Shown piece by piece: positions 13,304 through 20,496 of a stretch of DNA of 64,000 nucleotides (its first letter is position 1; each line of letters opens with the position of its first letter). The notes under the pieces were generated by a model. That model was given only the letters and a program-made list of their open reading frames with translations, was not told the origin of the DNA and did not search any database. The stretch is from the NCBI GenBank assembly GCA_965219955.1, contig OZ244799.1, forward strand, positions 640,001-704,000, in the 5' to 3' direction. This DNA is from a bacterium. Its GTDB lineage: Bacteria > UBA8248. The position numbers and the translations under genes were made by a program.

Positions 13304-14152
13304 GTGATGGCTACGGACGAACAGACGATTCACCATGAAGACGTGCGGGGGCGTATCCTCTCAGCGGATTCGATGACATATTTTGACGAAAGGGCAGGGA
13401 AGAGGGACGTTCTCATTGCAGGTTCTTACGCTGCGCGAATGACGATTGCCTGGGCAATGCGGCTGGGTGCGAGAGCAATTGTTGCCCATGCGGCGGGGGT
13501 AGGGATGGATGATGCCGGGATCAGCGGTCTCCGCTTGGCTCAGGATTATCATGTGCCTGCATTGGCCTGTGAGACCATGTCCGCGAGGCTCGCTGTTGGA
13601 GAATCCGTGTATGAAGGCGAAGTCGGTCATGCGAATCAAGCGGCTAAAAACCTTGGTGTTGAAATCGGTCAGTCCATAGCTGATGCTTCGGATTGTTTGC
13701 TCGATGCCGAAATGGGCCGGAAAGTAATTGTCGAGGAAAGTCTTGACGATAGGATTTATGAGCTGGAGCTTTTGCCTCATGGTAATATACGCGCTTCATG
13801 GGGTATTCCCGTCCTGCGTTCCATCAAAGAACCAAGACCGGATGACGTCTTTATCCAGGCTTCACATTGCGGACTTACCCTCATCCCGCATGTTGTGAAG
13901 CTCAATCTAAAGGGTGTTGTTGCGAATGATGCGGGGCGGGGAAAAGATGATTCCGGTATCGCATCTTTTCCTTATCTGGCGCGAGAAGGTATCGCGGCGG
14001 CTGCGGTCGGCGCCATGAGCGCGCGCATTGGTGATGTGATGAGCACATGGGAAGACGGCGTGATTTCATGCATGAATGAAGTGGCGGAAAAGCGCGGAGT
14101 ACGAGAAGGCATGAGAACGCGAGAGGCGGCTCAAGCCATGCTCAATCCTTAG
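13304..14152 (+). CDS. Conserved hypothetical protein with two tandem homologous domains
   Basis: Repeated xAGxGxDDxGI...SAR...N..A...GV..G motif in both halves. Confidence 0.75.
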   Translation: MMATDEQTIHHEDVRGRILSADSMTYFDERAGKRDVLIAGSYAARMTIAWAMRLGARAIVAHAAGVGMDDAGISGLRLAQDYHVPALACETMSARLAVGESVYEGEVGHANQAAKNLGVEIGQSIADASDCLLDAEMGRKVIVEESLDDRIYELELLPHGNIRASWGIPVLRSIKEPRPDDVFIQASHCGLTLIPHVVKLNLKGVVANDAGRGKDDSGIASFPYLAREGIAAAAVGAMSARIGDVMSTWEDGVISCMNEVAEKRGVREGMRTREAAQAMLNP

Positions 14153-14174
14153 GGTTTAACTCAAGCAACTGCTC

Positions 14175-14250
14175 TGGTGGAGGTGAGGGGATTCGAACCC
14201 CTGACCTCGTGGGTGCGATCCACGCGCTCTCCCATCTGAGCTACACCCCC
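14175..14250 (-). tRNA. tRNA-Ala(CGC)
   Basis: GGGGGTGTAGCTCAG...CGTGG-ATCGCAC-CCACG...GGTTCGAATCC...CACCTCCACCA; G3:U70 pair; encoded CCA. Confidence 0.96.
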
Positions 14251-14264
14251 ACAAAAGGAATATG

Positions 14265-14293
14265 AAGGTAGGCGAAGGAGCCCTGGGTGTCAA
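14265..14293 (-). promoter_or_regulatory. Sigma70 promoter of tRNA-Ala
   Basis: TTGACA-N17-TACCTT on the minus strand, 14 nt before the tRNA. Confidence 0.75.
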
Positions 14294-14303
14294 GTGAAAA
14301 AGG

Positions 14304-14586
14304 GAGAGCCGATGAAGAACTCCCCCTAGGAGACTTCACCGGCTCTCGACCTGCCGCAGAGTCCGCCCGTTTCCCCCGCAGCAGGGAATTCCGCTCGATT
14401 TGAAGTGGGAGCCGAAGACTCAACCCCCGAGGTGTATTATCCCCGGCTCCCGATCCTGCTGCAGAGTCCGCCCGTTTCCCCCGCAGCAAGAGAATTCACT
14501 TTGGTGAGAGTCGGGGAAAAACCCTCCGAGGATTCTCCCCCGACTCTCGTCCCGTCGCAGAGTCCGCCCGTTGCCCCCCCGACGGG
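14304..14586 (-). ncRNA. Three tandem two-hairpin structured units (about 100-nt period), unknown family
   Basis: Units 14304-14385, 14407-14490 and 14506-14586; invariant AACGGGCGGACTCTGC core; compensatory stem changes; G-U pairs on the minus strand. Confidence 0.65.
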
Positions 14587-14600
14587 TAACAACTGATTTT

Positions 14601-17600
14601 TTAAGAACATCCACTCGTCGCACCGCAAGTCATGCATTTCAGGCAGGTACCGTTTCTTACCAGGGTGAATAAACCGCAATCGCCACATGCCTCACCCTCA
14701 TATCCTTTGGCGCGGGCTTCTTCGATACGCGAATCGAGGGCGGAGCCTGCTTCTGCGATAGGCGTCAACGAAGCGAAGGTGGATTCTTTCTCATAATTCA
14801 GACTTATCCGGTCACTACGCGGTGCGCTTGCATCTGGTCCCGGGAATATGGTTTGAATCTCCTCTTCTTCCTCGGTGTCGAATTCGGGGATCTCTTCCTG
14901 AGGGCGCCCAATGGTATCGCTCCTCAGGTCCTCCGACACCACTTGCGCAAGGTCGTGGCGTCCGAGATATGAGACTGCCAACTCACGGAAGATGTAATCG
15001 ATGATGGATGTGCTCATCTTGATGTGCGGGTTGCCTGAAACCATGCCCCCGGGCTCGAAGCGCGTGAAAACAAATGCATCCACAAATTCATCCAGAGGGA
15101 CGCCATGTTGTAACCCCAGGGAAATGGCGATGGCGAAACAGTTCATAAGGCTTCTGAAGGCAGCGCCTTCTTTGTGCATATCTATGAAAATTTCACCAAT
15201 CGAACCATCCTCGTATTCCCCGGTTCTAAGATACACTTTGTGCCCGCCGATGACGGCTTTTTGGGTGTATCCACCGCGGCGGGTAGGCAACTTGCGTCTT
15301 CTGGATTGGTAAATAATCCGGCGCACAATCTGCTGGGCTACGTGCACGGGTGCGCTTTGGGTAGCTGGTTCTTCTTCACTGATGTCAGCGAAGATTTCCG
15401 CTTCGCTTAGCGCGGAAAGTGGCTGGCTTAGTTTCGAACCATCACGGTAAATCGCAATGGCTTTGGTCATCCGCTGCCACGATTCGCGGTAGATATCCAA
15501 GATGTCTTGAATTGTGGATTCTGATGGCATGTTGATGGTTTTGCTGATAGCGCCTGATATAAAAGGCTGCGCCGCCGCCATCATCCGAACATGGGCCATT
15601 GGGCTGATGAAGCGCTTGCCTTCGCGTCCGCATTTACTGGCGCAATCAAAAACAGCTAGATGTTCTTCTTTTAGGTGGGGCGCGCCTTCCAGCGTCATTT
15701 TACCGCAAACGAAATCATTCGCTTCGCTGATTTGCTCCGGGGTGAAACCAATGGCTTCGAGCAGATTCAGGTTCCAGTCGGCAATTTGCGCTTCATTGAA
15801 CTCTAATTGTTCACGGCAGAAGTCTTCTCCAAGGGAGTATTTGTTGAAGGCGAACTGGATTTCAAATGCCCCCTCAAGCGCGGCTTCCACCTTTTCGAGG
15901 GCCTTGCTGGTGAACCCTTTTGCGTGTAGAGATTCTGGATTGATGTGAGGCGCATTCGTGAGGGTGCCCCGCCCCCGGCAGTAGGCGACGATTTCGCGGA
16001 TTTCTTCGTCATCATAACCCAGATGCCGCAAGGCAAGAGGAACGGACTGGTTGATGATCTTGAAGTAACCGCCCCCCGCCAGTTTTTTGAATTTCACCAA
16101 AGCAAAATCAGGCTCGATTCCGGTTGTGTCGCAATCCATTACCAAGCCAATAGTGCCCGTCGGTGCGATGACAGTAGCTTGCGCATTCCGGTAGCCGTTT
16201 CGATAGCCGATGGCCAAAGCGTCATCCCACGCCTCTCGCGCCGCCTGGAGAAGATAATGGGGACAGGTTTCCGCATCGATTCCTTTTGGCGCTTTAGAGA
16301 GCATTTCGTATTCGGCTTCAGGCACTGAATAAGCTGCGCGGCGGTGGTTTCGCAGAACGCGCAACATGTGCTCTTGATTGCCTTGATACCTGACGAAAGC
16401 GCCCAGCTCTCCGGCCATCTCGGCGCTTGTGGCGTACGAGCAGCCTGTCATGATGGAGGTGAGGGCCCCGCACCACGCTTCCGCTTCCGGTGAATCGTAA
16501 GGGATGCCGAGAACCATCAACAAGGTGCCCAGATTGGCGTATCCAAGCCCCAAGGTACGATACTCGAATGAGCGTTTGGCTATTTCGGGACTGGGGAATT
16601 GCGCCATCAGCACTGAAATTTCGAGGACGACTGTCAATAGACGGATAACGTGGCGATAGTCTTCTATCTGGAAATGGTTCTTTTCAGTATCCAAGAATTT
16701 CATGAGATTCATCGACGCCAGATTGCATGCGGTGTCATCCAGGAACATGTATTCCGAGCAGGGATTAGAGCCGTTGATGCGCCCATCGGTGGCGCACGTG
16801 TGCCAGTCGTTGATGGTCGAATCGAATTGAAGGCCGGGATCTGCGCAACACCACGCCGCGTATCCAATCTGCTCCCAAAGCTCTTTCGAGTTGAGGGAAC
16901 CGGCGATTTCACCATCGGTGCGCCGAATCAGGTTCCAATCCGTATTTTTCTCGCTGGCTTTCATGAATTCGTCTGAAACACGTATGGAATTATTCGAGTT
17001 TTGCCCGGACACCGAGGTGTAGGCCTCGCCTTCCCAATTCGTGTCGAATTCCTCGAACTCGATTTCGGTGATTCCTTGCCGCGCGAGTTGAAGGGTTCGA
17101 TGAATATAATTGTCCGGAACACCGGCTAGCCTTGCGGCGCGTATCGCTTTGGCGAGTGATGGGTTCTTATCCGGCTGATGGAGGTTGCCGTTCAACCCCG
17201 GGTTTTCCCCCTCCTGGCAAGCCACGAGAATAGCGTTCATATGCCGGTTGCACATCTTGCTGCCCGAAACCAGGGCAGCCACTTTCTGTTCCTCGTTCAC
17301 CTTCCAGTTGATGAATTCCTCGATGTCGGGATGATCGATGTCTAGCGTGACCATCTTCGCTGCCCGGCGTGTCGTGCCGCCCGACTTGATGGCGCCCGCG
17401 GCGCGGTCCCCAATCTTGAGGAAACTCATGAGGCCGGAGCTTTTTCCGCCTCCCGAGAGGGATTCCCCCTCCGCTCTCAAGCTCGAGAAATTCGTGCCGG
17501 TGCCCGAGCCGTATTTGAAGATGCGCGCCTCGCGCGTCCATAAATCCATGATCCCGCCCTCGTTGACGAGATCGTCTTTCACCGATTGGATGAAGCACGC

Positions 17601-18191
17601 ATGCGGCTGGGGACGTTCATAGGCGTTGGTGGAGCGGAGTATTTCCCCGGTTTCGGGGTCGCAGTAGAAATGGCCCTGGGCGGGGCGCGTAATGCCGTAA
17701 GCCCAGTGGAGGCCCGTATTGAACCACTGAGGCGAGTTGGGAGCCGCCATCTGGCTCGCAAGTATGTATAAAAGTTCCTCGTAAAACGCCTTGGCGTCCT
17801 CTTCGGTGTGAAAATAACCGTGTTTCCAGCCCCAATACGTCCAGCATCCCGCCAGGCGGTGGAAAACGTCCCGTGCGTCTTGCTCGCTTCCGTATTGCTC
17901 ATCCTCGGGCAGGGATTCGAGTTTTTCCGTGTCAGGTTCCGAGCGCTGCAGCCACTCGGGCACGCCGTCTTCGGGAACCTTTTTCAAATGGGCGGGGACG
18001 CCGGCTTTCCGGAAGTATTTTTGCGCCAGGATGTCGACGGCCACCTGAGACCAGCTCTCGGGCGCCAGGATGTCCTTCGCTTCGAAGACGAGCGAGCCGT
18101 CCGGGTTCGTGATGCGCGAGGTGCGCGGCGCGAAACCGACCTCGCCGTACGCATCGTCTCCAGCCCGGGTAAAACGCCTCGTCAACTCCAC
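14601..18191 (-). CDS. nrdJ: Vitamin B12-dependent (class II) ribonucleotide reductase
   Basis: [28 protein letters not shown] and IAPTGTI motifs; C-terminal Cys cluster; GGAGGAGG RBS before GTG 18191. Confidence 0.96.
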
Positions 18192-18227
18192 TTTCAGCCT
18201 CCTCCGCAAGGGCGCCCCGCTGTGCCG

Positions 18228-18361
18228 GGGACATATTTAGTATGGCGCAATCAAACCGTAACACTAAATGTAGTATGCTTTGCCCTCGTCTGTCAATACC
18301 CTAAAAACAGATATACACAAAATATATGAACTTACCCACACCTTATCCCCAAATGTTGTGC
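18228..18361 (-). promoter_or_regulatory. NrdR boxes overlapping the nrdJ promoter
   Basis: ACACTAAATGTAGTAT (18261-76) and TCCCCAAATGTTGTGC (18346-61); weaker copies at 18228 and 18315; TTGACA on the minus strand at 18291-96. Confidence 0.75.
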
Positions 18362-19897: not shown

Positions 19898-20263
19898 TCA
19901 GTCCTGCTCGAGGAGGACGGCCAGCTTTTCGAGCGTCTCGCCCACCACGCGCGGCGGAGCCTTGGACGCCGGACGCGCCTTTCGCGCACGCCAGTCGAGG
20001 CTCTTCACCTGGTCGGCGAGAACCACGCCCGTAACGGGGCCATCGGCGGGGAGCGCCACCTCGAAGGGATAGCCCTTGACTCTCGAGGTGATGGGGCAGA
20101 GCAGCGCCAGACTGCTTTTCTCGTTATAGCTTCGCGGGCTGACGACCAGCGCGGGGCGGCGGCCGGCCCCCTCGTGCCCGGCCTGGGGGGTGAAGGAAAG
20201 CCAGACGACCTCGCCTCTGCCCGGAACGTAGTCCGCGCCGGAAACCTCCCGCCTCGCTACCAC
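19898..20263 (-). CDS. mazF: MazF/PemK endoribonuclease toxin
   Basis: YVPGRGEVVWLSFTPQAGHE.AGRRPALVVSP..YN, CPITS..KGYPFEV and DQVKSLDW..R. Confidence 0.92.
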   Translation of the reverse strand: MVARREVSGADYVPGRGEVVWLSFTPQAGHEGAGRRPALVVSPRSYNEKSSLALLCPITSRVKGYPFEVALPADGPVTGVVLADQVKSLDWRARKARPASKAPPRVVGETLEKLAVLLEQD

Positions 20264-20496
20264 GCCTCTGCGCCCTGCGCCGGACCAGCGTCTTGCTCGG
20301 CGTGCAGGTTGTCCGCGTTTATTTCGGCGAGCATGTCTGCCAGTCGGTAGCCTCTCTTTCTCATCACCACCCGGTCGCCGCGCGCGTTCATCTCGATGGC
20401 CGAACCCTCGCGCACGCCCCATTGCTCGGCGATGGGCTTCGGGATGCGGACGGCCAGGCTGTCCCCCCATTTGGAGATATGCGATTTCGCGCCCAT
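20257..20496 (-). CDS. mazE: MazE/AbrB family antitoxin
   Basis: KWGDSLAVRIPK and C-terminal G.E.W; overlaps the mazF start. Confidence 0.9.
   Translation of the reverse strand: MGAKSHISKWGDSLAVRIPKPIAEQWGVREGSAIEMNARGDRVVMRKRGYRLADMLAEINADNLHAEQDAGPAQGAEAW

Follow-up and report, generated by a model that had tools for sequence, protein, structure and literature searches.

A tandem two-hairpin RNA module behind the nrdJ gene of Nitrospinaceae: a candidate element of the mRNA 3′ end

Introduction

Several protein-binding hairpins arrayed in the 3′ UTR can set the half-life of an mRNA, as the iron-responsive elements (IREs) of the transferrin-receptor mRNA do, and mammalian ribonucleotide reductase (RNR) mRNAs also carry stability elements in their 3′ UTRs. 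In the MALAT1-mascRNA system, RNase P forms the 3′ end of an RNA at a tRNA-like structure. Many 3′-UTR-derived sRNAs end in a hairpin followed by a U-tail, and the L17 downstream element is a structured RNA motif located downstream of its gene. To our knowledge, few conserved RNA families with a clear structure work from the 3′ UTR of bacterial mRNAs, and we know of no bacterial precedent for a riboswitch situated behind its gene. In Escherichia coli, a stem followed by 3′-RCCA suffices for RNase P cleavage at the junction between single- and double-stranded RNA (PMC4693268). Very small aptamers embedded in terminators exist (PMC6478431).

The locus described here lies in a 64,000-nt stretch of bacterial DNA (the window; assembly GCA_965219955.1, contig OZ244799.1, positions 640,001 to 704,000) and consists of three tandem two-hairpin units directly behind nrdJ. 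The array is structured at the RNA level on the minus strand, is under strong purifying selection, is linked exclusively to nrdJ and carries tails that depend on the position of the unit.

Results

All three units share one layout, in which a 36-nt hairpin with a 12-nt loop (hairpin 1) is followed by a gap of 2-3 nt and then by a 43-45-nt hairpin (hairpin 2). Unit 1 begins 14 nt past the nrdJ stop codon (14603-14601), the start-to-start spacings are 96 and 105 nt, and the units are 66-76% alike over 67 nt. A first-pass annotation had already placed a three-unit array here; its coordinates, the 14-nt gap and the minus strand were all confirmed, and the stem, loop and cap sequences that it quoted are all present. 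The features of the locus are as follows.

14601..18209 (start codon provisional), minus strand: nrdJ, class II (B12-dependent) ribonucleotide reductase, a 1202-codon ORF
14304-14586, minus strand: array of three two-hairpin units, each of 81-84 nt
14586-14506, minus strand: Unit 1, with hairpin 1 at 14586-14551 and hairpin 2 at 14548-14506
14551..14586, minus strand: Unit 1 hairpin 1, with a 12-bp stem (8 covarying pairs plus GGGG/CUCU) and a 12-nt loop
14570-14563, minus strand: Unit 1 octamer CGGGCGGA, the invariant 3′ eight bases of the hairpin 1 loop
14506..14548, minus strand: Unit 1 hairpin 2, a helix of ~19 bp, G-C closed, with a CCU-N-GG-R-GG apex; inverted repeat detected
14502..14505, minus strand: ACCA directly 3′ of Unit 1 hairpin 2, resembling a tRNA acceptor end and followed by an A/U-rich single-stranded linker
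14407..14490, minus strand: Unit 2, with hairpin 1 at 14490-14455, octamer at 14474-14467 and linker AUC; covariance-model score 84.5 bits
14451-14407, minus strand: Unit 2 hairpin 2, with an internal loop
14304..14385, minus strand: Unit 3, with hairpin 1 at 14385-14350, octamer at 14369-14362 and linker UC; covariance-model score 92.0 bits
14347-14304, minus strand: Unit 3 hairpin 2; inverted repeat detected
14297..14301, minus strand: five-T run 3′ of Unit 3 hairpin 2, reached through CC; together with hairpin 2 a putative nrdJ terminator

The loop of hairpin 1 comprises four variable bases followed by CGGGCGGA and is predicted to be unpaired over its invariant part in the minus-strand fold. 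Hairpin 2 has a variable, covarying stem that is G-C closed and a conserved apex, CC-U-N-G-G-R-GG, which we take to resemble a pyrimidine-U-N-purine U-turn loop. Between units, A/U-rich linkers are predicted to stay single-stranded. Two details of the first-pass annotation fell on closer comparison. It had read the loop tetramers GAAA and GCAA as GNRA, and these four positions vary freely in relatives (GUAA, GACA, ACUA, AAAU, AGUU, CAAA); it had also described the units as lacking U-tracts, and hairpin 2 of the last unit leads into CC and five T (14301-14297).

A 21-nt core of the unit occurs in 3 copies in the window, where none of 100 shuffles gave any match, and in 3 copies in the 4,283,615-bp genome, all at the nrdJ locus; a fourth genomic match to a 16-mer lies in coding sequence and has no hairpin. 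The covariance model R1, which represents the whole unit and was built from a 64-unit MAFFT alignment (A1), likewise retrieves the three array copies only from the own genome, with the next matches at E 0.47 and 2.5. The minus strand of the array folds with -160.9 kcal/mol (z -7.24; 0 of 100 shuffles as good) and the plus strand with -116.1 kcal/mol (z -4.35).

Base pairs were counted over 136 model-aligned units, of which 82 are distinct, and RNAalifold was run on the MAFFT alignment. Standard pairs fill 98.4% of 2038 cells, and both sides of the pair have changed in a compensatory manner at 18 of the 25 pairs (290 cells). None of 500 shuffles reached any of five covariation measures, and sliding the partner columns as a control lowers pairing to 46-61%. 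An alignment fitted to a model is biased towards structure; the independent MAFFT alignment with RNAalifold gave the same pairs. Covariation among homologues is strong, in keeping with the compensatory changes that the first-pass annotation had noted in three units. G-U pairs are frequent, with dozens of cells at some positions (e.g. 81 and 66 at two of the pairs). As the first-pass annotation had said, only the minus strand accommodates them; on the plus strand they would be A-C mismatches. The GGGG/CUCU extension of hairpin 1 is backed by one-sided changes and by a variant in g8, GGAG/CUCC, in which all four pairs are kept.

The stems vary and the 3′ part of the hairpin 1 loop does not: the octamer CGGGCGGA and the 9-mer CGGGCGGAC are identical in 81 of 81 distinct units. 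Third-codon identity of nrdJ at conserved residues is only 0.42-0.50 between the window and other genera, so synonymous sites are saturated between genera and the frozen loop reflects selection rather than recent ancestry. Inspection of the alignments by eye revealed no conserved G-quadruplex, K-turn, triplex or pseudoknot with linker or tail, nor a conserved alternative pairing between hairpin 1 and hairpin 2. A coding role of the units was rejected, since their spacings in relatives are not multiples of three.

The comparison with described families was made at two levels of stringency. Across the whole window, the 4227 models of Rfam 15 at gathering thresholds match a tRNA only; at E<=10 over 14100-14800, the best match on a unit is a plant miRNA model with 20.6 bits, against a gathering score of 128. 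The family that the first-pass annotation could not recognise therefore has no Rfam match at either level. Its exclusion of a CRISPR array also holds, given that the units are 66-76% alike with two hairpins each and that a tandem repeat finder reported no array. In the literature, no description of such an element linked to nrdJ or to Nitrospinota was found among the papers listed by full-text search, and the main texts of genome-wide motif surveys do not contain Nitrospin-, nrdJ or ribonucleotide reductase; these main texts could miss a candidate listed in a supplement only.

The genome also contains an abundant REP-like family of ~190 copies, which start with GTAGGGGCGG and form a short hairpin with several arm variants (e.g. 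G000:C1:636895, 666643). The family is abundant in many, not all, genomes of the genus. It has the 8-mer GGGCGGAC in common with the array loop, and some REP arms are complementary to the loop over 12 nt. Assignment of the array to REP, BIME or MITE repeats was rejected, as the first-pass annotation had anticipated: the array has three genomic copies, all at one locus, versus ~190 copies of a different unit. A link between the REP family and the array was rejected as well, the REP word being at control level in g2, g4, g5, g7, g8 and several g1 carriers.

Several candidate partners were tried and set aside. CsrA (PF02599) is found in 0 of 22 g1, 0 of 4 g5, 0 of 2 g8 and 0 of 1 g4 carriers, nor does the own genome (g1) have it; with the protein lacking in most carriers, the array cannot serve to sequester CsrA. 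RRM proteins occur in just 3 of 51 genomes and were rejected as a partner. Repeats of the ToxI kind (type III toxin-antitoxin) do not fit, because the array is followed not directly by a toxin gene but by a tRNA, a convergent gene or an ORF without a Pfam family. A search of four g5 genomes for conserved mRNA targets with at least 9 nt of complementarity to the loop returned none; shorter or imperfect seeds would be compatible with this result. In these four AT-rich genomes the 9-mer occurs 16 times, of which 4 are the element and 12 lie in coding contexts that are unrelated by eye. Sites complementary to the loop occur in the own genome at chance frequency.

Of 41 further genomes from the family of the source genome, which the record titles name Nitrospinaceae/Nitrospinota, 36 carry 1-4 tandem copies according to the R1 model, each at one locus only. 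The five same-family genomes with no match are metagenome-assembled genomes (MAGs) of 280-560 contigs that are 79-93% complete. The covariance-model search that the first-pass annotation had proposed thus returns single-locus copies in the own genome and in its relatives. A model of hairpin 1 by itself, applied to 42 genomes, scores array copies at 39-69 bits and gives nothing above 26.8 bits outside the arrays, so that a wider regulon of isolated hairpin 1 copies was rejected for these genomes. R1 finds no copies in 9 genomes from the three other families of the phylum, and three of these nine have a shorter NrdJ followed by ordinary short terminator-like hairpins.

A broader survey used an exact 26-position pattern on one genome per species from 185,579 species and matched 31 stretches. 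R1 confirmed 30 of these, the exception being a chance match in a MAG titled Pseudodesulfovibrio; across the species scanned, the module was seen in this group alone. The titles of the 30 confirmed records read Nitrospinaceae (4), Nitrospinota (5), Nitrospinae (1), 'Candidatus Tectomicrobia' (2) and plain 'bacterium' (18). A metagenome collection added 16 further stretches, and a viral contig collection gave 0 matches. The first hairpin begins at most 28 nt past the stop codon of a typical NrdJ C-terminus in 68 of 76 fetched loci, many of which are the same genomes fetched twice. The remaining 8 comprise one chance match, one locus cut at its end, and others in which an additional 100-400 nt separates the array from nrdJ; in g9 loci this interval contains an 83-aa ORF.

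What follows the array differs among groups: a tRNA in g1, a convergent gene in g5 and an unannotated ORF of 80 aa in g9. In genus g5, whose genomes are streamlined to 2 Mb, a single unit lies between convergent genes; it can therefore only belong to the 3′ end of the nrdJ transcript, with no gene on its downstream side that it could regulate. The linker between the hairpins in g5 (L030-L032, L034, L106, L107, L114) is AAAA and not AC or UC. On the opposite strand, the complement of hairpin 2 thereby gains a U-run behind it, and transcription of the convergent gene may end at this hairpin as well. In g9 (L118:8218-8469 and L118:8908-9150; also L005, L006, L059, L063, L109), paralogous small ORFs of 83 and 80 aa flank the array. 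They match no Pfam family, and their 5 database homologues are all 'hypothetical'. Because a small ORF follows and the last unit has no U-tract, the g9 array may also serve as a 5′ leader of the downstream ORF. The middle unit has lost hairpin 1 and kept hairpin 2 in L010, L017 and L018, three genomes of the genus with a unit spacing of 162 nt; this is a natural deletion variant of the array.

Tails were tabulated over 34 distinct arrays, one of them partial and one lacking the first hairpin 1. First units have N-CCA immediately behind hairpin 2 in 25 of 29 cases and single units in 4 of 5; for inner units the figure is 5 of 28 and for last units 2 of 29. The base before CCA is C or G, not the purine A, in some of the first units. 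U-rich tails show the opposite distribution (23 of 29 last, 1 of 28 inner and 0 of 29 first units). The last unit, with a U-tract behind its hairpin 2, looks like a terminator, and the combination of a G+C-rich hairpin and a U-tract that defines an intrinsic terminator is found in the last unit only. In the window, hairpin 2 of Unit 3 with its five T looks like the intrinsic terminator of the nrdJ transcript. A G-C-closed helix followed by A-CCA is the pattern of a tRNA acceptor end. No cloverleaf or L-shape was detected in the array by ARAGORN or the Rfam tRNA, tmRNA and mascRNA models, which match only 14175-14250. First units have the sequence features of a minimal stem-RCCA substrate of RNase P (Unit 1: ~19 bp, G-C, ACCA at 14505-14502), described as a helix of ~13-16 bp or longer with a single-stranded 3′-RCCA and a single-stranded 5′ leader (PMC4693268). 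The own genome encodes a class A RNase P RNA (323.6 bits).

The gene adjacent to the array on its downstream side is a tRNA-Ala(CGC) at 14175-14250, identified by ARAGORN and Rfam. Between the two (14251-14293, minus), a TTGACA at 14293-14288 is followed 17 nt on by TACCTT. The first-pass annotation had credited the tRNA with its own promoter. In favour of this, the TTGACA is conserved before the tRNA in most genomes of the genus; against it, the -10 is weak and a consensus scan called no promoter.

The product of nrdJ matches the Pfam families Ribonuc_red_2_N (5.7e-44), Ribonuc_red_lgC (1.1e-124) and TSCPD (1.8e-10) and aligns with PDB 7b9p, a solved long-type enzyme, over residues 8-933. The own genome, a single contig that is 94% complete, has one PF02867 locus only and no PF00268 (class I small subunit) or PF13597 (class III). 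With no other RNR locus detected in the genome, the array forms the trailer of the only RNR found. A lineage-specific RNA-binding insertion in NrdJ was considered and rejected, given that the segments missing from the shorter NrdJ of family f4 are present in 7b9p. A TACO1/YebC_N match in NrdJ is weak and below the cut-off, and in these comparisons nothing links NrdJ itself to RNA.

Upstream of nrdJ, at 18231-18276 (minus), lie two A/T-rich imperfect palindromes, ATACTACATTTAGTGT and ATACTAAATATGT, at ~31 nt centre to centre. The pair sits just downstream of a TTGACA at 18296-18291 and resembles a pair of NrdR operator boxes. Further upstream, an ORF at 19898-20470 (minus) has a PemK/MazF-like toxin domain (4.4e-24) and stands among small accessory genes (GNAT, DUF5131). 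These neighbours (GNAT, the MazF-like protein, DUF5131 and others) gave no clue to the function of the array.

Of the words sampled from 14100-15600, 52% and 37% are present in two metatranscriptome runs. Contigs assembled from RNA libraries cross the nrdJ stop codon into the array (X1 14365-16261, X2 14543-15192, X3 14576-14800); they derive from strains 90-99% alike, cannot show strand, ends or processing, and may include DNA carry-over. Transcription through the stop codon, which the first-pass annotation had assumed, is therefore indicated weakly, by presence in libraries only. No contig covers 18212-18500, and almost none covers 14208-14361. In X2, the word depth of the array contig is greater than that of the nrdJ contigs, a comparison in which contigs cannot rank depth. 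The predicted RNase P site lies close to 14543, where one X2 contig stops, and contig ends are not transcript ends.

Discussion

These results support the first-pass reading that the nrdJ 3′ trailer contains a series of structured RNAs with a function, in that the units have no Rfam match, no dispersed copies and strong covariation. The function put forward here is that of a cis-acting module for the 3′-end processing and stability of the sole-RNR mRNA, read by a dedicated factor; it is the favoured reading and a tentative one, somewhat short of probable. Hairpin 1 would present CGGGCGGA above a G-U-rich helix as a docking site for a dedicated trans-acting factor, most likely a protein. In the first module, the G-C-closed hairpin 2 with its ACCA could lead to RNase P cleavage or to a protected 3′ end of the CCA type, and in the last module hairpin 2 with its U-tract would terminate transcription. 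We infer binding of the factor, RNase P cleavage or 3′ trimming, and control of 3′-end formation or half-life of the mRNA. RNase P cannot explain every unit, because the inner units of g1 and of g9 have no CCA. A protein dedicated to one mRNA is unusual unless it is autoregulatory.

Two of the rival explanations also assign a role to the invariant loop. The units might be cut from the nrdJ transcript and act in trans as 3′-UTR-derived sRNAs or as a sponge, with the loop as seed or binding site. This is on the unlikely side: the A/U-rich single-stranded linkers, the hairpin and U-tail of the last unit, a copy number of 1 to 4 and the predicted unpaired state of the loop would suit it, but no conserved complementary target was found and own-genome sites are at chance frequency. 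In addition, CsrA is absent in g1, g5, g8 and g4, RRM proteins are found in 3 of 51 genomes, and the single unit of g5 would be a poor sponge. Alternatively, hairpin 1, alone or docked with the loop of hairpin 2, could be a small aptamer that senses adenosylcobalamin or a (deoxy)nucleotide and acts from the 3′ UTR on termination or decay. The locus has some features of a riboswitch, namely linkage to a single gene, invariant unpaired bases and a conserved hairpin followed by a terminator-like hairpin; very small terminator-embedded aptamers exist (PMC6478431), and nrdJ is the sole RNR found and depends on B12. An aptamer is nevertheless rather improbable, given that the module sits behind its gene, which is an atypical position, that just 8 loop bases are invariant with no multi-helix junction, that the inner copies of hairpin 2 have no U-tracts, and that no alternative pairing of hairpins 1 and 2 is conserved by eye.

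Three further rivals were considered. Stacked hairpins that only terminate transcription and block 3′ exonucleases, like REPs or terminators, would account for the very stable fold, for the terminator-like last unit and for the AAAA linker of g5, which supplies a U-tract for the convergent gene on the other strand. Such a passive structural end would not need an invariant 9-mer, a conserved pentaloop and N-CCA across genera with saturated synonymous sites, and in relatives from outside the family nrdJ is followed by ordinary short terminator hairpins; this explanation is thus judged improbable, and a plain exonuclease barrier in particular is disfavoured because it would not require an invariant octamer. 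Self-cleavage of the nrdJ trailer by a new kind of ribozyme is very improbable: invariant bases in two loops that could dock and the presence of tandem copies speak for it, whereas no Rfam ribozyme matches even at E<=10, no cleavage site suggests itself and nothing in the data requires catalysis. An element acting at the DNA level, either a REP/MITE-type repeat or a protein-binding site, is barely credible. The loop 8-mer GGGCGGAC that the REP family has in common with the array would favour it, but all three array copies stand together at the nrdJ locus, many carriers show the REP word at control level and the G-U pairs fit one strand only.

A bolder form of the favoured cis-acting reading is quite unlikely as a whole. 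In it, the mRNA of the sole B12-dependent RNR would carry a tRNA-acceptor-like 3′ end, made by an RNase P cut at the junction of hairpins 1 and 2 or by trimming to CCA, and the CGGGCGGA loop would act as a switch for stabilisation that responds to a protein or a metabolite (B12, nucleotide). The module would then be a bacterial counterpart of MALAT1-mascRNA combined with sensing in the 3′ UTR. A still more speculative variant would have the loop sequence ACGGGCGG pair with the CCGCCCGU stretch of the own 16S rRNA just after the stop codon. The match between ACGGGCGG and its complement CCGCCCGT in the 16S gene of the genome spans 8 nt, or 7 where the preceding A varies. This complementarity is within chance (a rough estimate of 10-30% for some rRNA site) and serves as a speculative lead. 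A resemblance between Unit 1 and the 16S segment ACGAGAGTCG was dropped, since the units do not conserve it.

The Nitrospinaceae are major marine nitrite oxidisers, and all dNTP synthesis in the genome studied appears to depend on one B12-dependent enzyme. The module is kept behind nrdJ throughout the family, even in 2-Mb genomes, with its loop frozen, which points to a new layer of post-transcriptional control over the supply of DNA precursors. If the proposed function is true, the 3′ end of an mRNA would be formed or protected here in a new way, by an invariant recognition loop joined to an end like that of a tRNA acceptor.

Comparison with known systems

The array resembles intrinsic terminators and REP stabiliser hairpins in placing stable G+C-rich hairpins right behind a gene, the last with a U-tract, and protection of the 3′ end is plausible in both. 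Unlike them, it occupies a single locus across a whole family and has invariant loops, covarying stems, two-hairpin units and N-CCA on the first units. With minimal RNase P substrates, first units have in common a G-C-closed helix, A (sometimes C or G) plus CCA and a single-stranded 5′ leader, and as in MALAT1-mascRNA the module lies at the 3′ end of a long RNA. It differs from both in having no cloverleaf or T-loop and no CCA on inner and last units.

Repeated invariant-loop hairpins in the 3′ UTR of one mRNA also recall the IREs, and nrdJ, like the mammalian mRNAs with 3′-UTR stability elements, encodes an RNR. Those elements are eukaryotic and unrelated in sequence to the nrdJ module. In its proposed function, the module comes closest to such sets of hairpins bound by proteins and to 3′ ends defined by RNase P, both analogies being drawn from eukaryotes. 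The CsrB/RsmZ sponges are similar in carrying several hairpins with GGA-containing loops in one transcript; in contrast to them, the array is an mRNA trailer, its conserved sequence is much longer than GGA, and CsrA is mostly absent from its carriers. With gene-associated motifs such as riboswitch candidates and the L17 downstream element, the module has in common a definition by covariation and a constant linkage to one gene, and it differs in occurring as tandem copies and in matching no model of Rfam 15. On these comparisons, it appears to be a new RNA family, confined to one family of Nitrospinota, of a general kind that is already known: the gene-linked structured RNA motif.
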